From a virus (Duplodnaviria > Heunggongvirae > Uroviricota > Caudoviricetes), in the IMG/VR virus record IMGVR_UViG_2602041549_000009: 13,094 nucleotides of DNA. One strand, given 5' to 3'. Position 1 is the first letter of the stretch. Each line of letters begins with the position of its first letter. Position numbers and translations under genes: made by a program. Positions 282-12,200 of this stretch are shown here, piece by piece. The notes below the pieces were generated by a model that had not been told where the DNA came from, did not search any database, and saw only the letters and a program-made list of their open reading frames with translations.

Positions 282-1553
282 CTATTCTTTCCAGTCAATC
301 CCATCCAGTAAGCACCCTGCCTCATATTGCCCCACCACCCAGTCAAGGTTACAGGACTCATAGAACGCGAGGCGATTATACTGAGGCTCGTTTTTTACCA
401 GGCCACGAACGGAACCACGCTGCCAGTACAGACACAGATTGGCAAGAGGTGTGATCAATACAGCATTGTCCGGGAAAAATGGAACGGTCACAGCCGGGAG
501 ATTCCCCAGAACAGGATTTTTAATGATTTCCTCGTTAAGCAAAATTTCCTGATTCATCTGCGATGGATCAAGACGGTTTATCAAAGGCCATTGCTTACGG
601 ACCAGCGTATTGTGACTGCATACGGCCACAATGCCTTCCTGCCACTGTTCATCAATCATGGATTGCCAGGCATCCAGAACGAGCGCATCTATCGTATGGT
701 GTGTACCGCGTGTATTACTTTTCGGTGATGAAACAGAAAGGCCGCTGATAACCCTTCCCGCCGCTTCATTTCGAAACTTCTGCAACCAGCCCACGCCGCA
801 ATCATCACGCCCCGGATATGTTCCGGGATCTGATGTATCGGCATAGTGCGTACCGTTAAAACCAATCTGAATCAAATCCAGCCATTTCCGGCGTTCAAAA
901 GCAGCCCGTGCGCTTCCTTCAAGACCGTTTGCGGATGCGTGAGCATCAACATTGTCGTAGTTCAGCGCAAAATCAAAATTAACCTGCTCGCAGCGGTAGC
1001 CCCTTGAAACCAGTGAATGCGCCTGTAGTGGCGAACGGCGCTCGTGAGGTGGCGATGTACGTGCCAACGGCCCCGAAGCGTCTACCAGCACAACCCGACC
1101 TGATATATCCGTAACAGGCACGGGAGTTATTTCAGCAAGGAAATTTGCCTGCCATCCACTGGCAAGCGTTGCACTCTGGCGGGGAACGGGTTCAACTTCT
1201 GACGAATAGCGCGCAGTGTCACCGGAAAAGTGCAAATCCTTCGGATGCTTTCCGGTTATCGACTCGATAGCGCAATTGAAAACCATCTGAGCCTGTTGAT
1301 TTCGTTGTGATGCAACAGAATCAGCAGTGCAATTATAACGCTCAATGCCGTCGTTATTACCCCCACCGCTTGCAGTATGCAGGGTGTGAAGCTCAAGCTC
1401 ACGCTCCAGTTTTTGATATTCATTGTCCAGCGCGCGACGCGTCTCATTGCTTATGCTTGCTGTGTTTGCTTTCAGGCGATTCCGGGACATTAATCCCCTG
1501 AGTCGGCTCACTATATCAGCGCCGTGCAAATGTGGAGTATTCAGACCGCCCAT
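282..1553 (-). CDS. Hypothetical 423-aa protein of unknown function, translationally coupled to the upstream Psu-like gene; candidate satellite hotspot cargo
   Basis: Long minus-strand ORF. I chose the start at 1553 (MGGLNTPHLHG...) because its ATG overlaps the upstream stop as TAATG; the ORF track's 1694 start would overlap the upstream gene by 141 nt. I see no Walker A, HNH, reverse-transcriptase or other motif I can name. Confidence 0.6.
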   Translation of the reverse strand: MGGLNTPHLHGADIVSRLRGLMSRNRLKANTASISNETRRALDNEYQKLERELELHTLHTASGGGNNDGIERYNCTADSVASQRNQQAQMVFNCAIESITGKHPKDLHFSGDTARYSSEVEPVPRQSATLASGWQANFLAEITPVPVTDISGRVVLVDASGPLARTSPPHERRSPLQAHSLVSRGYRCEQVNFDFALNYDNVDAHASANGLEGSARAAFERRKWLDLIQIGFNGTHYADTSDPGTYPGRDDCGVGWLQKFRNEAAGRVISGLSVSSPKSNTRGTHHTIDALVLDAWQSMIDEQWQEGIVAVCSHNTLVRKQWPLINRLDPSQMNQEILLNEEIIKNPVLGNLPAVTVPFFPDNAVLITPLANLCLYWQRGSVRGLVKNEPQYNRLAFYESCNLDWVVGQYEAGCLLDGIDWKE

Positions 1554-2263
1554 TACTGCCACCCCCGGCAGAGTTCTCTGCCCTCCGCAAGGTCGCGCAT
1601 TTTTTCTGGATTCTGTCGCGCCGCGCTCCATTGTACAGGTGAAGGGGCGTTCCTGATTGTGCGGCTTACCGAATCCGGGAGTTTCTCCGGGCAATAACGC
1701 AGCGGGCTGGAGGTGTCGCTTTCGGTATCGTTAATCCGGCCGCGAATCATCCCGGCACTTTCAGCAGCATCTGTCGCTTTCAGTGTTTCGCATATTTTCT
1801 TTTCTGCGTTATACAGCGGCTGGCCAAGCAGCTCACATAAACCACGAATCAATAACAGAGCAGGGGTCAGCTCGTTAATCAGTTCGGGAAGTGCTTTTGC
1901 AAATATCTCTGCCCGCAACTTATTATCAATGCTTTCGTAAGCACAACCAGCCTCTGCCGCGTTATAACGACACTCCAGTAGCCTGATGCGCGCCTCATCA
2001 TGCAGCACCCGCAGACGCTCAAGATTTTCTCGCGCCACACCCGCCTGAATGGATAATTTCGCGGAGGCTTCCGTTTTTACGCCCAGCGCAGACAGGATTG
2101 AGTTCTGCCAGTCACGATCGAGAGATTCCAGCTCCCCTTTCGTCTGTTCGATAGTTGCTTCCAGATTGGTGATTAATGATTCCTGTTCACTGAGTTTTGC
2201 CATGGCTGTATCAAACTGTGCTTTACATACCTGATGTTCGGCGCTTGCCTGAGTTATATCCAT
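1553..2263 (-). CDS. psu: Psu-like (polarity suppression / capsid decoration) protein, P4 family, 236 aa
   Basis: ORF with SD AGGAG 6 nt before the ATG at 2263. Helical, coiled-coil-like composition with stretches (AQFDT near the N-terminus, ALPEL, ATDA) that resemble P4 Psu as I recall it. Lies downstream of an Ogr/Delta gene as in P4. Assignment is from memory, not alignment. Confidence 0.5.
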   Translation of the reverse strand: MDITQASAEHQVCKAQFDTAMAKLSEQESLITNLEATIEQTKGELESLDRDWQNSILSALGVKTEASAKLSIQAGVARENLERLRVLHDEARIRLLECRYNAAEAGCAYESIDNKLRAEIFAKALPELINELTPALLLIRGLCELLGQPLYNAEKKICETLKATDAAESAGMIRGRINDTESDTSSPLRYCPEKLPDSVSRTIRNAPSPVQWSAARQNPEKMRDLAEGRELCRGWQ

Positions 2264-2269
2264 TATTTG

Positions 2270-2380
2270 CTCCTGTAATACATTTTTTTACTTACGCCGA
2301 TTTTTTCCATATTGCGTAATACATTCCAGCCGATATTGTTCTCGTAATACGCTCACAATACTGTTGTATTACGCTTTCTT
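2270..2380. promoter_or_regulatory. Divergent promoter/operator region with repeated CGTAATAC (GTANTAC) sites
   Basis: Intergenic between the Psu-like gene (minus) and the plus-strand RHH-like gene. Copies at 2276-2282, 2316-2322, 2344-2350 and, inverted, 2366-2372; the last two form a perfect inverted repeat CGTAATAC-N15-GTATTACG (2343-2373). Confidence 0.5.
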
Positions 2381-2428
2381 ATATCGCGGGTGTTAAATCC
2401 CGGCATAAACAATCAGGGAGGCAACACG

Positions 2429-2662
2429 ATGAAAAAACAAAAGAAAATGCGATGCGTATTACGCTGTATTCGTATCCCGCACGAAATCGACCATAAAATA
2501 AATCAGATATGTCAGGACAGAGAGATGAACTACTCCCAGTGCGTCAGAATGTTTATCAGTCAGGGAATTAAGGCCGGGGAAACGCAGGAAGAAGACTGCA
2601 ACGGGCGCAATGTAGCGGGGGATGTGTGGGCCTGGGCAAATGACCAGAACCACACGACGTAA
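2429..2662 (+). CDS. Small ribbon-helix-helix-like DNA-binding protein (putative regulator or antitoxin-like), 77 aa
   Basis: Plus-strand ORF with strong SD GGGAGG 7 nt before the ATG at 2429 (MKKQKKMRCVLRCIRIPHEIDHKINQI...). The basic N-terminus followed by an RIPxEIDxKIN segment is RHH/CopG-like by eye. Convergent with the Ogr-like gene. Confidence 0.5.
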   Translation: MKKQKKMRCVLRCIRIPHEIDHKINQICQDREMNYSQCVRMFISQGIKAGETQEEDCNGRNVAGDVWAWANDQNHTT

Positions 2663-2712
2663 TACAGAAATAACGCAGCCGGTCACACTCGCTGGCTGTG
2701 TTATACAAATCA

Positions 2713-2895
2713 CTATGAAGTTTTCGACTTCCTGCGCTTAGTAATGCGCACAAACGACTCAAGCGTACAAAAACAGGCCCCACACTCAATATTATTGCAC
2801 TGGTAATACGTTCTGTAGATGTTTTGTTCGTGTTCTTCCAACGAACGACCACGGGTGCGGGCTGAAGCGCCACAGGCCGGGCAAGGGAAAGACAT
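2713..2895 (-). CDS. Ogr/Delta-family zinc-finger late-gene transcriptional activator, 60 aa
   Basis: Protein MSFPCPACGASARTRGRS...YYQCNNIECGACFCTLESF matches the Ogr/Delta pattern CPxC...YxQCxNxxCxxxFxTxES of P2 Ogr / P4 Delta. SD AGAGGAG 6 nt before the ATG. Confidence 0.85.
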   Translation of the reverse strand: MSFPCPACGASARTRGRSLEEHEQNIYRTYYQCNNIECGACFCTLESFVRITKRRKSKTS

Positions 2896-3160
2896 ATCAC
2901 GCTCCTCTTACTGGTGTGAAATTTAACCTATTATATCTTCTGTCGCCCCCTCTGGCTGTATCAAATAAACCCGCAGCAGTCGCCGCGTATTACGCACGGG
3001 CGCGCCGTTCCCATGCTCACTCGTCACATTCCCCGTATCAGTTCTCTCTTGCCGTAAGAACGGCTCTGGCTGGCGATAAAACTAACCCGGTCGGGGCATT
3101 CCCGTAGCCTTTAGCGTAAATGTAATTTACCCCCTGAAACGCGTGCTGTTCCCCCGTCAC

Positions 3161-3196
3161 CTGCGCACAAAAAACTCACCGTTTTTTGTGCACGCA
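3161..3196. promoter_or_regulatory. Near-perfect ~33-bp palindrome (operator-like)
   Basis: TGCGCACAAAAAAC-tcacc-GTTTTTTGTGCACGCA; the core arms CACAAAAAAC / GTTTTTTGTG are perfectly complementary. The AT-rich stem argues for a protein-binding dyad rather than a terminator. Confidence 0.4.
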
Positions 3197-3257
3197 CGAA
3201 ATCGCCCTCCGGGCGCGCCAGTACTGGGCCGGATGGGCAAAAAGTTACTCTAAAAAA

Positions 3258-3284
3258 TTGTGCAAATTTGTGCACTTTTGTGCA
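3258..3284. repeat. Three direct repeats of TTGTGCA spaced at 10 bp
   Basis: TTGTGCA at 3258-3264, 3268-3274 and 3278-3284, one helical turn apart, consistent with cooperative binding on one DNA face. Confidence 0.45.
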
Positions 3285-3508
3285 GATGAACAATAGCGTC
3301 AAAAAGAGTGCTTTTGAGAGATTTTTTATGGCAACTGCGCCGCGTGTATTACGTTTTTTACCATCCCCGCCGCGCATGTACATACTTCATTTTTCTGCCA
3401 AACAACAGGGCAACTCCCCGTGACTGACAGCCCCAAAAAATCAATGATTGATGTTGCATTTTTGTTAGAGGTCAGGCCAGTTGTTTTGGGGCTCTGCCTC
3501 ATAATCCG

Positions 3509-3827
3509 GTGGGGGGTGCGCAAAGCGGTTACAACGGTTACAACAGTCAAAAATACCACTTAACAACATGATTTTAATGGATATTGTTTGTAACCGCTTT
3601 GCGGTTACACTGCGGTTACAACGGTTACAGGTTTCAAAAAGCACTTTATTATCAATCAATTAAAAACTTAACCTGTAACCGCCTGTAACCTAACAAAACG
3701 GTTACATGTAACCGCGTTGTAACCGCTTTTGTAACTCATCCGACCAGTTATAATATATTGATATATAATACAAAAATAAGTAATTCTAAATTTGTAACCG
3801 TTGTAACCGCTTTGCGCATCCCCCCCC
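3509..3827. repeat. Palindromically organised iteron field: at least 13 copies of GGTTACA / TGTAACC flanked by a ~32-bp inverted repeat with an AT-rich centre; candidate replication origin (ori/crr-like) or recombinase arm-site cluster
   Basis: Forward GGTTACA at 3527, 3536, 3603, 3614, 3623, 3700; reverse TGTAACC at 3589, 3674, 3684, 3708, 3718, 3793, 3802. Outer inverted repeat 3511-3543 versus 3793-3827 (26 bp identical). Inner perfect 12-bp inverted repeat CGGTTACAGGTT (3622-3633) / AACCTGTAACCG (3670-3681) across an AT-rich spacer. Confidence 0.7.
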
Positions 3828-4020: not shown

Positions 4021-4050
4021 AAAAAAGGTCAGCGGGAAACTGACCTCTTT
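4021..4050 (-). terminator. Rho-independent terminator ending the primase-recombinase operon
   Basis: Stem GGTCAG / CTGACC (4027-4032, 4040-4045) with a 7-nt loop; on the minus strand it is followed by TTTTTT (4021-4026), about 25 nt past the recombinase stop at 4076. Confidence 0.7.
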
Positions 4051-4075: not shown

Positions 4076-5086
4076 TTACTCTGCTGGCTCTTTTTCTTCG
4101 GTGATCACTATGTTGGCTACCGGGTTAAATCTCATGGCATCTGCCAGGTAATCCGGTGCAAAATGCGCGTAAGTCATCGTCTGCTGAATAGTGCTGTGTC
4201 CTAGTATTTTCTGCAATGTGATGATGTTTCCACCATTAATCATAAAGTGAGTGGCAAAGGTATGCCGTAAAACATGCACAGACTGACCGACGGGTAAATC
4301 AGGCCGCACAGTCCTTATTGCACTTCTGACAGTTGCATAATTAGGTTTCATTAATCTTCCGGTCGCCTTTACTTTGACCAGTGATTCAAGATCTTTAGCG
4401 ATTGGAACGACCCGCCTTGAGCCGTTCTTTGTCTTCATAAAAATAACCTTTCCGCCAATTATGTGCTCACCTTTAATATTGGCAATCTCACCCCAGCGCC
4501 CACCTGTAGCCAGACACAACAATACAGCCTTAAGATTATCGCCAGATAAAAGCGCGGTTAGCCTGGAAATATCATCATGTGCAAGATAAGCCATTTCTGG
4601 CTGATTAATGTTTAACTTACGTATCTCGCGAAACGGGTTATTACCCGCAAACTCTTCAGCATCAATCAGCTTTTCAAAGAAACCGCTCATCATGGCACAA
4701 TAGCGATTTACTGTTGACTGTTTAATTCCACGATTCATTAATTTAAGTCGATATCTGATAATATTTTTCCGGGTTAAATGATCGCTTCTGTTTATCCCAA
4801 GTTCGCGCATATCACAAAGAACAGCTTCAATTCTTACCCGCGTCATCGCTCCATAACGATGATTCTTGCCATGATACGCCCACCATAATTCCAGAAGATC
4901 GCTTAACGCTTTACGTTCAATGGGCTTTTCGACCCACTCTTTGTTGTGGTAGTGCATCAGAACATGGCGTTCATACGCCACTGCTTCACCACGAGTATCA
5001 AATCGCCGCCTGAATCTTTTTCCTTCTGCTCCTGCAGGCCGCACGTCCACAGCAAACTTACCGTTAACCAACTTCTTTATCGTCAT
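4076..5086 (-). CDS. Tyrosine-type site-specific recombinase / integrase, about 336 aa
   Basis: C-terminal catalytic region HVLRHTFATH ... LGHSTIQQTMTYAHF (HxxR and catalytic Tyr) is typical of the phage-integrase family. The start at 5086 (MTIKKLVNGKF...) overlaps the primase stop as ATGA. Confidence 0.85.
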   Translation of the reverse strand: MTIKKLVNGKFAVDVRPAGAEGKRFRRRFDTRGEAVAYERHVLMHYHNKEWVEKPIERKALSDLLELWWAYHGKNHRYGAMTRVRIEAVLCDMRELGINRSDHLTRKNIIRYRLKLMNRGIKQSTVNRYCAMMSGFFEKLIDAEEFAGNNPFREIRKLNINQPEMAYLAHDDISRLTALLSGDNLKAVLLCLATGGRWGEIANIKGEHIIGGKVIFMKTKNGSRRVVPIAKDLESLVKVKATGRLMKPNYATVRSAIRTVRPDLPVGQSVHVLRHTFATHFMINGGNIITLQKILGHSTIQQTMTYAHFAPDYLADAMRFNPVANIVITEEKEPAE

Positions 5087-7758
5087 TTTTCGGTGACCTC
5101 CTTGTAACTGAATATCCGGCATTTCAGCACTTCCGGCTCTCTGGCTTCGGCTACTCCTTTTCCGGCGTTTGCCTGTCTGGACACCTCACTACGAATGGTT
5201 TTACGGCCTGTCAACGGTCGGGAACGCCCAGCTCCGAGCAACTCAATCATTTCGCGATCGGTTCGGATCTCCACGCGGTGAATGGCGGCAGCCTGTGCCA
5301 GTTGCGGAATACTGATAGCAATCCCTTCGCGGCATCCCTTGCCGTAATGGTTTACACCGTATTTTGTTATGCCGTCCAGGAAGTCGAACGCCTCCCAGAA
5401 CTCCATCACTTCTGGCAAGTCAGCCGCCGCCGCTTTAACCTGCGCCGTTGCCATTTGTTCCAGTTCCAGACATGTGGCATCAAGCCATTCATCCGGGATA
5501 TCGATAACGCATTTCAGCGCCCTGACCAGCGCGATAAGTTGCGCGTGATTTTTGGCAATACGGGGATGGCGAATATTTTCGCATCCGCAAAGGCGTTCCG
5601 TTTCAGCGGGCGATACCTCCAGGAACGTTTGCATAATCGCCCGTTCCTGACTTACCGCCCGGTGAATAAACCCCGATACCTTCTCGACGGGGTAGAGTTC
5701 CAGCCGTCTCGCCGCCAGTCGGGTATCAGGTGAATGGCGTTTTTTATCGGTGTATATGCGTATCAGGCGCTCAATAATTGCCGGCGAGGCATTTACCCGC
5801 GCATTCTGCGCAATCACGATAGCGCCCTTAAAATCCGGGTCATAGGTGTTGTTATTGTTGGCCTTAACCCCACGAACACCGATACCGCCACCGTTATAGA
5901 GGCTTTTCAGGTTATCGAAGTCAAACGCACCTCTTTTTTGCGCATTGTCTCCCCGGTCTGCTTCAATCAGAACAACAGGCAATCCGGCGACCTGTCCAAA
6001 GGTGCGCTTCCAGCCCGCCTCTGATCCTTTGGTTGGATCAACTCCTTCGTAGTTGTCACGACCGCACAGCCGCCAGCAAAAATCAATCAATGTTGATTTG
6101 CCCGTTCCGGGCTCTCCGGTGACTTCAAGGAAAGGGAAGGATTCTTCTTTATCCCGGATTTGTTCGCTGAACAGGGAGCCCAACCAGAAAGCCAGGGTAA
6201 TAATTCCCTTTTCACCAAAAGCCAGCCAGAGATCTTCCACCCAGGACGCTGTAAATTCATCCGGTTTTTTGTAGTTAATCTGTAATGTGGGGTTTTCGCT
6301 TAATGGTTTTGCGTTTATGCCATCAATTTCAAAATAATCCTCGTCATTGATTTCATAAGTTTTTCCCTTGTAAACAGCAATATCATTAAACAGCCATGCC
6401 CCAATCGCCTTGTTGTATCCGATAAAATCCTGACCAATAACCTCTTTTATTGCGGGAAGGTCATTTTTTATTAATGCGTCAAGCTGCGTAGTCGTTCCGG
6501 TATAAATACCGCCTTTTGCCACGTGTAACAGGCGTTTTTTAAATTCAGATGAGGATGTTAATTGTCCTGATGTAAAGGTGTTTTTCACCGTAGCACCATC
6601 CGGGAACGTAACACGGAAGTAATACCATGCTTCATCCGTGTCATTATTTCGAATGTAATAAAGCGGCGCTGGGTTACAGTTTGCGATTTCTTTTACTGCA
6701 CCAGATTCCTTAAGTGCAATTTTGCGCGCTTCATCCTCATCAACATTTCGCTCATTAATGACACGCTCAACAGCCTTCATATGGCGCTCAATGTCCAGCT
6801 TGAACCAGAAAACACGGTTATCAAAAGTAAAATGAAATTCCTTCCGCTCACGAAAGGAAAACATTATTAGTGCCTTATCTCTTGGAGATTTCGCCAGCAA
6901 TAAATCACCGTAATAACGGTATCTTTTCACATCATGGCCACGCAGCTTTCCGGCGATGTGTAAATCATTCCAGTCGCGTTTATTGTTGTTTTTACCTGGC
7001 AACGCCGCTGCCGTTCTCCAGCCGTCTTCGGCGCTGCGTTCTGCATGTTTTTTCGCGTAACGCTCACCTGCACGCCCGTTATCCAGCGCCCACACGATAA
7101 CCGGACGGGGATTATCCCCGCACAGCTTCGCCAGCTCTTCCAGTGCCTTATCAGGGTAGTTCACGGCAGACATGACAGAAACGGCCGCAATGCCATTCTG
7201 GTTAAGGCTGATGGCATCAAAGATACCCTCACAAATCCAGATTTCTTTGGCCTTGCTTAAATCTGCTCCCGGATAAGCCCACCACAACCCCTTGTAGCTG
7301 CCGGAAAAATTCGCCTTCCGTTCGAAGCGTTCCGGTCGGTCTATGATGCGCTCCCACCACACGTCGTCAGCCAGCGTAAAACGCACAGTAGCGGCCTGTT
7401 CGCCGCTTTCCTTGTCTTTGTATCGCTCCTGGGTAAATACCCCCTTCAGTGGCTCTGTAGCAATATTGCGTGCCTCCAGGAGATAAGCTGCCGCCGCTGC
7501 GTATGGTTCATCTTTCGTACTGATATAGCGATCTGACCATGATGAAAACACATCCGGGTAAAGTTCTTTAGTCAGCAGGTCTGTACCGCATTTATTTTCA
7601 CGCCCGCAGTGTACGATGTACGGCCTTTCAAGGCTGGTAAACAACTCTTTCTTTCCACATTGCGGACAAACACCATACCGGAGGTAGTTATTTTCTTCTT
7701 TGAAGTTGTAATCACGGATAAGACGGTTAATAATCTCTTTTCTGATGTCAGATTTCAT
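5083..7758 (-). CDS. P4 alpha-like primase-helicase (zinc-binding N-terminus, TOPRIM-like motif, C-terminal P-loop NTPase), about 891 aa
   Basis: N-terminal CPQCGKK...HCGRENKCG zinc-ribbon-like motif; WICEGIFDAISL (EGxxD TOPRIM signature); Walker A GEPGTGKST and Walker-B-like VVLIEADRGD. Start placed at 7758 (MKSDIRK...) because SD GGAG sits 8 nt upstream; the ORF track's 7782 start lies inside the upstream hairpin. Confidence 0.85.
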   Translation of the reverse strand: MKSDIRKEIINRLIRDYNFKEENNYLRYGVCPQCGKKELFTSLERPYIVHCGRENKCGTDLLTKELYPDVFSSWSDRYISTKDEPYAAAAAYLLEARNIATEPLKGVFTQERYKDKESGEQAATVRFTLADDVWWERIIDRPERFERKANFSGSYKGLWWAYPGADLSKAKEIWICEGIFDAISLNQNGIAAVSVMSAVNYPDKALEELAKLCGDNPRPVIVWALDNGRAGERYAKKHAERSAEDGWRTAAALPGKNNNKRDWNDLHIAGKLRGHDVKRYRYYGDLLLAKSPRDKALIMFSFRERKEFHFTFDNRVFWFKLDIERHMKAVERVINERNVDEDEARKIALKESGAVKEIANCNPAPLYYIRNNDTDEAWYYFRVTFPDGATVKNTFTSGQLTSSSEFKKRLLHVAKGGIYTGTTTQLDALIKNDLPAIKEVIGQDFIGYNKAIGAWLFNDIAVYKGKTYEINDEDYFEIDGINAKPLSENPTLQINYKKPDEFTASWVEDLWLAFGEKGIITLAFWLGSLFSEQIRDKEESFPFLEVTGEPGTGKSTLIDFCWRLCGRDNYEGVDPTKGSEAGWKRTFGQVAGLPVVLIEADRGDNAQKRGAFDFDNLKSLYNGGGIGVRGVKANNNNTYDPDFKGAIVIAQNARVNASPAIIERLIRIYTDKKRHSPDTRLAARRLELYPVEKVSGFIHRAVSQERAIMQTFLEVSPAETERLCGCENIRHPRIAKNHAQLIALVRALKCVIDIPDEWLDATCLELEQMATAQVKAAAADLPEVMEFWEAFDFLDGITKYGVNHYGKGCREGIAISIPQLAQAAAIHRVEIRTDREMIELLGAGRSRPLTGRKTIRSEVSRQANAGKGVAEAREPEVLKCRIFSYKEVTEK

Positions 7759-8980: not shown

Positions 8981-9252
8981 ACGTGGTGGCGAGACGTAAC
9001 AGGGTTGACAGACTGGCAAATTGGGAAACCAGCGAGCATAAAGCTCCCCCATTACGCCCCGCCATAATACGGGAAAGGGTGGTATTACGGGCACAAAAAA
9101 ACCGCATTACGGAATACAAGCGGCTACCCGCCAATTTATTCAGGCTGTCAAACCCGGCACCTGTTTTATGAGGTGCGGGCAAACGATACGCCATGACAAA
9201 AAAGCGAGTCAAGCAATATTGCAAATTATTTTGGCGCGATTGCGCTGAGTGA

Positions 9253-10671: not shown

Positions 10672-11934
10672 TCAGTCTGTTTCGTTAGCCCATTTAAAAT
10701 CATAGGGGGCAATATATGCCGTCTTGCAGGTGTCGAGATAATCAGCCCACCATTGCAACATTCGGCGGCGTTCCTGCATATGTTCAGCTCTGTGAATGTA
10801 TGCAGCCCGGACACTGCCTCTTTCCCTGTGACTCATCTGAAGCTCAACGGCTTCTCTTGTCCACCTGCCTGACTCTGTCAGCGCCGAACAGGCCATAGCT
10901 CTGAATCCGTGGCCACAAATATCTTTTTTTGTGTCGTATCCCATGTGGCGTAATGCCTTGTTAATGGTGTTTTCGCTCATTGGTTTTATCTGGTAATGGT
11001 CGCCGGGGAAAATAAACAATTCATCACCGGATATATTTCTTATATCGTCAAGAAGCTGCATGGCCTGAGTGGGCAAAGGGATGGCGTGAGGGGTTCCCAT
11101 TTTCGTTCCACGATATGAATATTTTACGCCTTCTATTTTTTCGCGTTCTGCTGGTATTACCCACATTGATTTATCAAAGTCAATTTCATTCCAACGAGCA
11201 AAACGCAATTCACTTGAGCGAATAAAAATTAATAAATTTAATTTTAGTGCAAATTGCGTTAATAACCGTCCATTCATCTTGTGGTGGTAATCATTTATTT
11301 TGCCAAGTAATTCAGGTAATCGCTCAAGGGGAAGAGCGGGGCGATGTTTGGTTTTATTAGTTTCGATTGCACCGTTCAGTTCCTGCGCTGGATTGTATTT
11401 AATCATTCCATTCTGTACAGCGTAGCGCATAATGGCGTTCATTCGCTGCTTGTTACGTGATGCTGTCTCAAGCACTCCTTTATCTTCCATTTTGCGTAAA
11501 GGAATCAGTAGATCCATGGTTGTGATCTCGTTAATTGGCCTTTTACCAAGAATGGGGAAGATGTGGTTTTCCAGGTCTTTTAAGACTTTTTGCGCGTGTA
11601 ATTCGCTCCAGCCCTTTTTCCGGCTGTGCCATTCTCTGGCAACGTCTTCAAAAAGCACTATTTGAGGTTTTGGTGTGTGCAGTGGGTCAATGCCTTTAGC
11701 CAGGCTCGCCAGATATTCATCACGAGCGTTCCTTGCCTGTGCAAGTGTTACGGCAGGATAAATGCCTAAAGCTCGGGTCGTTTCTTTACCGTTGATAACC
11801 TTGCGAAAGCGCCAGTATTTTGAGCCGTTGGGGTGAACATAGAGATACAGGCCTTTCCCGTCACGAAGTTTTTTAATTTTGTTGTTGTCCTTATCTGGTT
11901 TGGCGTTACGTACAGCTACATCAGTCAGTTTCAT
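10672..11934 (-). CDS. int: P4-type tyrosine integrase (DUF4102-like N-terminal arm-binding domain plus catalytic domain), about 421 aa
   Basis: N-terminus MKLTDVAVRNAKP...GKGLYLYVHPNGSKYWRFR and C-terminus HGFRAMA...RAAYIHRAEHMQERRRMLQWWADYLD are characteristic of P4/CP4-57-type integrases. SD GGAGG 9 nt before the ATG at 11934; the track's 11976 start has no RBS. Confidence 0.85.
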   Translation of the reverse strand: MKLTDVAVRNAKPDKDNNKIKKLRDGKGLYLYVHPNGSKYWRFRKVINGKETTRALGIYPAVTLAQARNARDEYLASLAKGIDPLHTPKPQIVLFEDVAREWHSRKKGWSELHAQKVLKDLENHIFPILGKRPINEITTMDLLIPLRKMEDKGVLETASRNKQRMNAIMRYAVQNGMIKYNPAQELNGAIETNKTKHRPALPLERLPELLGKINDYHHKMNGRLLTQFALKLNLLIFIRSSELRFARWNEIDFDKSMWVIPAEREKIEGVKYSYRGTKMGTPHAIPLPTQAMQLLDDIRNISGDELFIFPGDHYQIKPMSENTINKALRHMGYDTKKDICGHGFRAMACSALTESGRWTREAVELQMSHRERGSVRAAYIHRAEHMQERRRMLQWWADYLDTCKTAYIAPYDFKWANETD

Positions 11935-12200
11935 TATGTTGATCCTCCAGACGGGTACAAATAAAAATCGAACCAAGCGTACCCGTTTTTATACCCATTT
12001 TAATATGGGCTTCAGGCAAATTTAACGAGAGATAACGAGACAATGGAAGAGATTTAACTCATTGAAAAACAATGGGTAATGGTTTTTTCTGAGAGATTGC
12101 GAGAAGTTGCGATGGTGTCCCCTGCAGACATCTACTTGAGGCAGCAGGGGATTGATTGGAATGGTATTTTTTAGATGTGAGAAATATTTTACCCGCTATT

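Follow-up and report, generated by a model that had tools for sequence, protein, structure and literature searches.

What is a dense field of short inverted repeats doing in the interior of a P4-like satellite? The DNA considered here is IMG/VR record IMGVR_UViG_2602041549_000009, a stretch of 13,094 nt (hereafter the window), which is a P4-like satellite integrated in an Escherichia coli chromosome. Its repeat field, at 3508..3827, is built from the heptamer GGTTACA/TGTAACC and is separated by a P2-type integrase gene from the gene for an 891-aa primase-helicase (5083..7758, minus strand), the proposed initiator. A sequence-only reading had likened the field to the P4 origin (ori) and cis replication region (crr), an array read by the primase-helicase, and had offered a phage attachment site (attP) as the alternative. 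Our comparisons favor the first proposal: the field is very probably the vegetative replication origin of the satellite, with initiator sites that would be read by its own primase-helicase. We prefer this reading because the array travels with the primase family across genera, because the iteron sequence co-varies with a residue in the winged-helix-like C-terminal domain predicted for the primase, and because the duplex of lowest stability in the entire window falls within the field. By analogy, it is most likely an iteron origin that works like P4 ori/crr and like the origins of SaPIs (Staphylococcus aureus pathogenicity islands) and of PICIs, the chromosomal islands that are phage-inducible, and thus of an ordinary kind, albeit one not described before for this replicon family.

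Repeat architecture of the field

We counted 16 copies of GGTTACA/TGTAACC across the window. Among 200 dinucleotide-preserving shuffles of the same DNA, the mean was 1.31 copies and the maximum 6, and none (0/200) reached 16. Thirteen exact copies and one degenerate copy fall within 3527-3808, in agreement with the earlier count of at least 13 for 3509-3827. The exact iterons start at 3527, 3536, 3603, 3614, 3623, and 3700 on the plus strand and at 3589, 3674, 3684, 3707, 3718, 3793, and 3802 on the minus strand; the degenerate one, TGTAACT at 3730 (minus strand), carries one mismatch. A density scan of the whole 13 kb, in which up to one mismatch was allowed, revealed no second GGTTACA field.

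The field is a module of ∼320 bp (3508..3827) with a 36-nt inverted repeat at its two ends. In each outer arm a G/C run is followed by GCGCAAAG and that in turn by two iterons spaced 9 bp. The left arm (3508..3543, plus strand) reads GGTGGGGGGTGCGCAAAG and continues into the iterons at 3527 and 3536, and the right arm (3792..3827, minus strand) mirrors it with the iterons at 3793 and 3802 and a C-run. The arms are 94% complementary over the 36 nt, with 248 nt between them; the outer repeat noticed previously is therefore real, although longer than the ∼32 bp assigned to it. Nested inside are two perfect 12-nt inverted repeats (3612-3623/3715-3726 and 3622-3633/3670-3681), where one had been claimed, together with further perfect inverted repeats of 16 nt and 15 nt.

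The inner iterons form two groups. The first (3589..3629) has a minus-strand copy at 3589 followed by plus-strand copies at 3603, 3614, and 3623, spaced by 11 and 9 bp. The second (3674..3736) has minus-strand copies at 3674 and 3684, a head-to-head pair (plus-strand 3700 and minus-strand 3707), a minus-strand copy at 3718, and the degenerate minus-strand copy at 3730. Read along the plus strand, the order is thus two forward iterons; one reverse and three forward; two reverse, one forward, two reverse, and the degenerate reverse copy; and two reverse, each set being divided from the next by an AT-rich spacer. While the nested inverted repeats described from the sequence stood up, the picture of forward copies on the left and reverse copies on the right of one AT-rich centre did not: the order is mixed and there are three AT spacers.

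These spacers, at 3544-3588, 3630-3673, and 3738-3792, are 73-82% AT, with the highest value (82%) in 3738-3792, and the GC fraction at 3600-3799 falls to 0.335, compared with about 0.44-0.54 in the flanks. Within the third spacer, 3749..3789 is the 40-bp duplex of lowest stability in the window, with a nearest-neighbor energy of -37.1 against a window mean of -55.1 (sd 4.6), and we regard it as a candidate DNA-unwinding element. The IHF consensus WATCAANNNNTTR is matched twice in the window, both times in spacers of the field: at 3650..3662 (plus strand) in the middle AT spacer and at 3751..3763 (minus strand) inside the candidate unwinding element. Both are consensus matches only, and their total count is not significant; by eye, an ATCAA...TT element resembling the IHF match at 3650..3662 is present in the middle spacer of several relatives. 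An Rfam search found no known RNA in the field, and promoter-like hexamers there are weak and at chance level (3 vs 2.3 expected).

Distribution of the module and co-variation with the primase

We then asked where such DNA occurs. Among complete E. coli genomes, 61-66 of 5,426 contained field DNA, each at 1-4 places, always on the chromosome and inside the element, and DNA searches found none in phage and plasmid collections. We therefore rejected a plasmid or known phage sequence as its source, as well as the generic host repeat, scattered chromosome-wide, that the sequence-only reading had considered.

The primase-helicase matches phrog_1139 over its full length (1e-298) and carries a Zn finger, a Toprim domain, a DUF5906/SF3-type ATPase with the Walker A motif GEPGTGKST, and a C-terminal domain. 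It belongs to the family of phiCTX orf37, Ralstonia RSY1, and the ESSI2_ev239 protein, to which it is 41-52% identical over the full length, and is not detectably a member of the P4 alpha family; BLASTP against P4 alpha aligned Toprim (E 0.004) and Walker A (E 2e-4) only. The family comprises at least 894 clusters; besides some P2-like phages, its carriers are P4-like satellites of E. coli, Salmonella, Yersinia, Providencia, and others.

We scanned ∼100 loci that encode relatives of this primase, drawn from species genomes and viral contigs, for the densest cluster of any 6-mer, found de novo. Wherever the primase was at least 52% identical and downstream DNA was available, the densest cluster of the locus lay +170 to +1412 nt past the primase stop codon, locus L045 excepted, and these clusters held 8-14 copies compared with 4-8 elsewhere in the same locus. 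Among held-out loci, 6 of 8 had a cluster at +142 to +1328 nt. The field of the window is 1.27 kb past the primase stop because the integrase gene has been inserted between the two, an order (primase, P2-type int, field) that is shared by Salmonella and Yersinia satellites. In locus L006, where the order is primase, field, recombinase, and in the Providencia, Pectobacterium, and Xenorhabdus relatives, the field follows the initiator gene at +142 to +460 nt; in ∼30 Providencia/Proteus loci it begins ∼180 nt past the primase.

The same ∼315-bp module, with its repeat order, spacing, and boundaries kept, is present in about 45 related loci from seven genera; in those of satellite type it is found 142-1412 nt past the primase stop. 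With arrowheads for repeats and numbers for the intervals between them, its grammar in the orientation of the primase is >> ∼63 > > > < 17 > ∼50 < < < 15 > ∼52 <<, and it is kept in E. coli, Yersinia, Salmonella, Providencia, Pectobacterium, Xenorhabdus, Klebsiella, and Enterobacter while the heptamer itself changes. The module ends are likewise kept: a G-run, CGGAAA or GCGCAAA, and two iterons 9 bp apart, with the far end mirrored, and we saw the equivalent of the left arm in Klebsiella, Enterobacter, Providencia, Yersinia, Xenorhabdus, and Pectobacterium. Escherichia phage ESSI2_ev239 (NC_049392; L103 540-840) also has the module, located not after the primase but ∼4.5 kb upstream of its start, beyond the integrase and an O-acetyltransferase gene and near the end of the record.

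Some Providencia elements contain tandem modules of 1.3-2.5 copies (L010 7700-8690; L018 7800-8500; L040 5600-6500). These arrays mix classes, with CGTTACA modules beside GGTTACA modules, and the primase motif in these elements is PDVLR, the one that accompanies CGTTACA. We also noted two satellite-sized elements of ∼10-11 kb, L104 (Providencia rettgeri) and L113 (Xenorhabdus), whose sole integrase is of the P2 type and which combine a Cox or helix-turn-helix regulator, a derepression protein, a primase of the window's family, the field, and Ogr/Delta; L113 additionally encodes a portal protein.

Which part of the primase might read the repeats? We modeled the C-terminal 205 and 110 residues with AlphaFold2, at high confidence (predicted local distance difference test [pLDDT] scores of 92.6 and 93.1), and in these models a helical bundle is followed by H-b-H-H-b-(long wing)-b, so that the C-terminus (residues 782-891, the last 110 aa; 5086..5415, minus strand) is predicted to have winged-helix topology. 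The best structural match of the modeled domain was the SaPI Rep initiator-helicase (SaPIbov5 Rep); SaPI origins are reportedly the subject of work by Ubeda et al. A sequence comparison of the primase with solved structures, including the P4 alpha origin-binding domain, gave no PDB match. In the model, residues 876-879 span the point where the wing ends and the last strand begins, directly before Cys880, which is invariant; the Trp at 881, nearly invariant across the family, is replaced by Arg in the window. The codons for residues 875-879 (P-E-V-L-K) are at 5122..5136 (minus strand); within this motif, residue 877 co-varies with iteron base 4, and residue 879 loosely with bases 1-2.

The heptamer GGTTACA is used by most E. 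coli loci, Yersinia, one Salmonella locus, and many Providencia loci. GGTCACA replaces it in L005, L029, L104, and L105, GGTAACA in L109, GGTTACT in L111, CGTTACA in six Providencia loci and Pectobacterium, CCTTACA in Xenorhabdus, YATTACA in Klebsiella and Enterobacter, and C(G/A)TCACA in phage ESSI2_ev239. The copies of a field change in concert: L005 and L029, whose primases are 90% identical to that of the window, have GGTCACA at every site. One rule held throughout 48 loci in 19 C-terminal motif classes: where primase residue 877 is Val or Ile, iteron base 4 is T, and where it is Thr, base 4 is C or A (Fisher's test on classes, p about 5e-4). The single apparent exception was CGTTACA read from the reverse strand. 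The Thr877 state arose at least four times, since every Thr lineage has a Val lineage as a nearer relative than any other Thr lineage. Predictions from motif 875-879, which were written down before the held-out contigs were fetched, were correct for residue 877 at 6 of 6 informative loci. When Providencia primases associated with CGTTACA and with GGTTACA were compared, the only diagnostic columns in the whole 886-aa protein were 876, 878, and 879; the E. coli GGTCACA and GGTTACA primases differ at 22 diagnostic columns, 876 and 877 among them. The earlier suggestion that a heptamer unlike P4's would imply a distinct primase specificity gains from this, in that the repeat classes track residue 877.

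It is possible, although we put it forward tentatively, that the wing motif 875-879 and the iteron form a simple, fast-evolving recognition code in which Val/Ile877 reads T and Thr877 reads C/A, that this code splits the satellite/P2-like replicon family into orthogonal classes, and that the repeated switches and the tandem two-class elements reflect selection. If so, selection could be for avoiding or for exploiting replication by the primase of a co-resident helper or a rival satellite, and the code would add a replication-level layer to the conflict between satellites and helpers and be a source of designable orthogonal origins.

The origin reading and its alternatives

Both P4 ori and crr are binding targets of alpha, a primase-helicase (Ziegelin et al. 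1993, as cited in PMC8628076), and P4 alpha and the SaPI/PICI Reps are described as binding iterons, unwinding, and priming (PMC8628076, PMC9371898, PMC6092414). The window resembles P4 in being a satellite with a P4-type integrase, CI/C4 RNA immunity, an Icd-like protein, and an ogr/delta-like gene, and in the layout of its replication protein, with Zn finger, Toprim primase, SF3 ATPase, and a C-terminal DNA-binding domain (predicted in the window protein). In both, short iterons in both orientations occupy a non-coding stretch after the replication gene and a terminator. The first two iterons are 9 bp apart in P4 crr as in the window (NC_001609), and a hairpin at 4026..4046 of the window is placed as t-alpha is before crr in P4 (NC_001609 annotation). 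The two differ in that the window iteron is GGTTACA whereas the P4 type I iteron is TGTTCACC (sites read from NC_001609); in that the window has one compound 320-bp palindromic module rather than two alpha-bound regions 4.5 kb apart; in that the window lacks 120-bp direct repeats; and in that its primase shows no detectable homology to alpha beyond Toprim and Walker A.

SaPI/PICI origins are sufficient on their own (PMC6092414, PMC9371898), and SaPI Rep is an initiator-helicase whose winged-helix C-terminal domain binds the iterons (PMC9371898). The field of the window has what defines these origins (PMC9371898, PMC6092414), namely repeats, an inverted arrangement, and an unstable duplex, and the proposed initiator may be comparable to theirs, a self-loading helicase, sometimes fused to a primase, whose C-terminal winged helix reads iterons. 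The window field is, however, more elaborate than the definition, and the helicase class differs. The phiCTX-type P2-like phages share the same primase-helicase family, and in ESSI2_ev239 we found the G-run, CGGAAAA, and the C(G/A)TCACA module; they differ in that the ESSI2_ev239 module lies beyond the integrase and in that no such cluster was found near the phiCTX, Ralstonia, or Pseudomonas primases. Our literature search found no paper that describes the window's type of origin or defines the origin of phiCTX-type phages.

On these comparisons we can suggest how such an origin might fire. The primase-helicase would bind the 14 GGTTACA sites through its winged-helix-like C-terminal domain, and the converging sets of sites, with their 9-11 bp spacing, would load oppositely oriented helicase rings about the AT spacers. 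Opening of the duplex would begin in the spacer segment of lowest stability, 3749-3789, possibly aided by IHF bending, after which the same primase-helicase would unwind the DNA and prime its synthesis, in bidirectional theta replication like that of P4. We infer each of these steps, from DNA binding and melting to double-ring loading, the role of IHF, and the direction of replication.

Several observations weigh against an origin read by this primase. P4 needs two alpha-bound regions and the window has one, and the field could thus be the crr-like partner of an unrecognized origin of a different type. Our 6-mer scan found no comparable cluster near the gene where the primase is less than ∼50% identical (phiCTX, Ralstonia, Pseudomonas), nor did it find one in L045, whose primase is 53% identical. 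Two whole P2-like prophages with a primase of the same family, L106 (Citrobacter) and L107 (Enterobacter), showed no module within 7 kb of the gene in the 6-mer scan. The first iteron bases tend to follow residue 879 (G for K, C for R, YA for H, CC for E); as a strict rule this failed once, at L105, which has R with mostly G, and we kept it as a tendency. Physical linkage could also explain part of the co-variation, as the Providencia field is only ∼180 bp from the 3' end of the primase gene. This last objection is weakened because a ∼1-kb integrase gene with unrelated alleles (47-59%) intervenes in E. coli and Salmonella, and because the residue 877 rule holds in ESSI2_ev239, where the module is distant from the primase.

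The main rival left is that the field is an accessory cis region bound by the primase, whether as an enhancer like crr, as an array for copy-number control or handcuffing, or as a centromere-like site for the plasmid state, with initiation elsewhere. The field does sit at the P4 crr position, directly past the replication gene and a terminator, and P4 needs ori and crr together; tandem arrays such as the 1.3-2.5 modules of some Providencia elements are moreover typical of control sites. Set against this, the field is the sole cluster of these sites in the element, the window's least stable duplex is flanked by converging sites as in the SaPI/PICI origin layout, and there are no partition genes in the window. 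We consider an accessory role unlikely.

Could the field instead serve the adjacent recombinase? That gene (4076..5087, minus strand), located between those for the primase and the field, encodes a P2-type tyrosine integrase of 336 aa; its start codon shares bases with the stop codon of the primase gene (ATGA) behind the Shine-Dalgarno sequence AAGGAGG, and it is translationally coupled to the primase. As an attP, with the heptamers as arm-type sites, the field would be well placed, ∼250 bp downstream of the integrase gene and with an ogr/delta-like gene (2713-2895) beyond it, for in P2 attP adjoins int and ogr lies beyond. The repeats are nonetheless uncoupled from the integrase. Between the window and L001, fields are 99% and primases 98% identical while integrases are only 47% identical, and across the window and L001-L004 integrase alleles 47-59% identical stand beside fields that are 73-99% identical and have the same GGTTACA repeats. 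Conversely, the integrases of L005 and L003 are 91% identical beside different iterons, GGTCACA and GGTTACA. The integrase allele does not track the satellite insertion site either: those of L002 and L003 are 98% identical, and the chromosomal sites differ (dsdC, hpt). In ∼30 Providencia/Proteus loci the integrase homolog is 4.5-6 kb off, upstream of the primase and on the other strand, and in L007 (Klebsiella), L008 (Enterobacter), L063, and L112 (Pectobacterium) the field is present with no such integrase nearby. The repeat sequence tracks a primase residue instead. Because the integrase alleles are uncoupled from the repeats, and given the synteny, we reject the attP-like site that had been suggested for the recombinase (there 4076-5086) as very improbable, and judged by these comparisons the integrase is not functionally part of the origin.

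The integrase itself is 77% identical to that of phage P88 and 58% identical to that of P2, and its gene is 86.8% identical at the DNA level to the integrase gene of a resident P2-like prophage next to chpSB (L114). Its alleles are only 47-59% identical among satellites that are otherwise 90-99% identical, and 51-55% identical among three Salmonella satellites. The swap is confined to the gene body, with the last ∼35 codons and both flanks conserved. The enzyme may act on the att sites of a helper prophage or on an alternative attB.

Equally improbable is a reading in which one of the element's transcription factors, such as an Ogr/Delta-like activator or a repressor, would use the field as a set of operators to control the genes to the left. 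The Ogr/Delta target is TGT-N12-ACA, which the TGT...ACA half-sites of the field resemble, and an ogr/delta-like gene is nearby. By eye, however, no pair that we checked (e.g., 3589/3603) has the N12 spacing, and 14 sites spread over 300 bp with AT-rich spacers are not promoter-like. The site sequence co-varies with the primase C-terminus, and the Providencia and ESSI2_ev239 modules are not beside an ogr-type gene. Finally, an invertible switch, in which a tyrosine recombinase would flip the 248-bp segment to switch a promoter, might be imagined from the long terminal inverted repeats, the adjoining tyrosine recombinase, and the weak promoter-like hexamers inside, but it is scarcely credible and can be excluded because 66 of 66 E. 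coli genomes are collinear in one orientation, with no flipped or broken alignments, and because the internal asymmetry keeps the same polarity relative to the primase in every genus mapped; the module also exists without a recombinase, and its promoter-like matches are at chance.

If the field is the origin of the satellite, a likely origin has been located for a large uncharacterized replicon family, and a replication module other than alpha, with one compound origin, is open to satellites classed as P4-like. The latter would matter for automated detection based on alpha profiles; satellite variants that lack alpha have been reported (PMC8628076). The one-residue/one-base specificity rule could be used for building compatible satellite-based vectors or for predicting cross-replication between satellite and helper, and the conserved grammar together with the clean residue-to-base co-variation would make the module a good experimental system.

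The satellite around the field

The field is internal to the element, ∼7 kb from the terminal P4-type integrase, which has an arm-binding domain (10672-11976, minus strand). A near-identical copy of the satellite lies between hpt and gcd in strain MIN10. The minus strand encodes an Icd-like protein and carries two adjacent RNAs, C4 antisense RNA (8982-9069) and isrK (9095-9176), with Rfam scores of 70.5 and 52.3 bits, a pair that is a P4-type RNA immunity region. The hairpin at 4026-4046 separates the stop codon of the recombinase from the field; it is flanked on both sides by T-runs and is likely a bidirectional terminator.

On the other side of the field are a small open reading frame (ORF), the ogr/delta-like gene, a gene for a 236-aa protein, and a homolog of the P2-family capsid. 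The major capsid homolog (282-1694, minus strand; PF05125, 1.8e-72) is a 470-aa ORF in which the Pfam match begins at residue ∼179, leaving a long N-terminal extension. Neither Sid nor Psu was detected in the satellite; the 236-aa protein (1553-2263, minus strand), encoded upstream of the capsid gene, resembles P4 Sid only at chance level and in a coiled-coil-like way (26% identity, E 0.48). The pair of capsid homolog and 236-aa gene is also found in Salmonella satellites, and the capsid homolog in a Yersinia one (L108-L110).

No P4/P2-type cos sequence (GGCGAGGCGGGGAAAGCAC) was found in any part of the window. The sequence (G)CGCAAAGCGG, at 3519-3528, 3594-3604, and 3807-3816, matches 10-11 nt just left of the P4 cos cut site at chance level, and we rejected the match of the outer-arm GCGCAAAGCGG to P4 cos-proximal DNA as a cos signal (10-11 nt, E 0.4-1.5, which is chance).

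A second heptamer, GTAATAC/GTATTAC (often CGTAATACG), is over-represented, with 13 copies in the window vs 1.2 expected. Nine of these lie in 2275-3352, around the divergent region upstream of the 236-aa gene and of a small plus-strand ORF (about 2430-2662). The cluster is kept in L001-L004 and L017, and it may be a set of operators.

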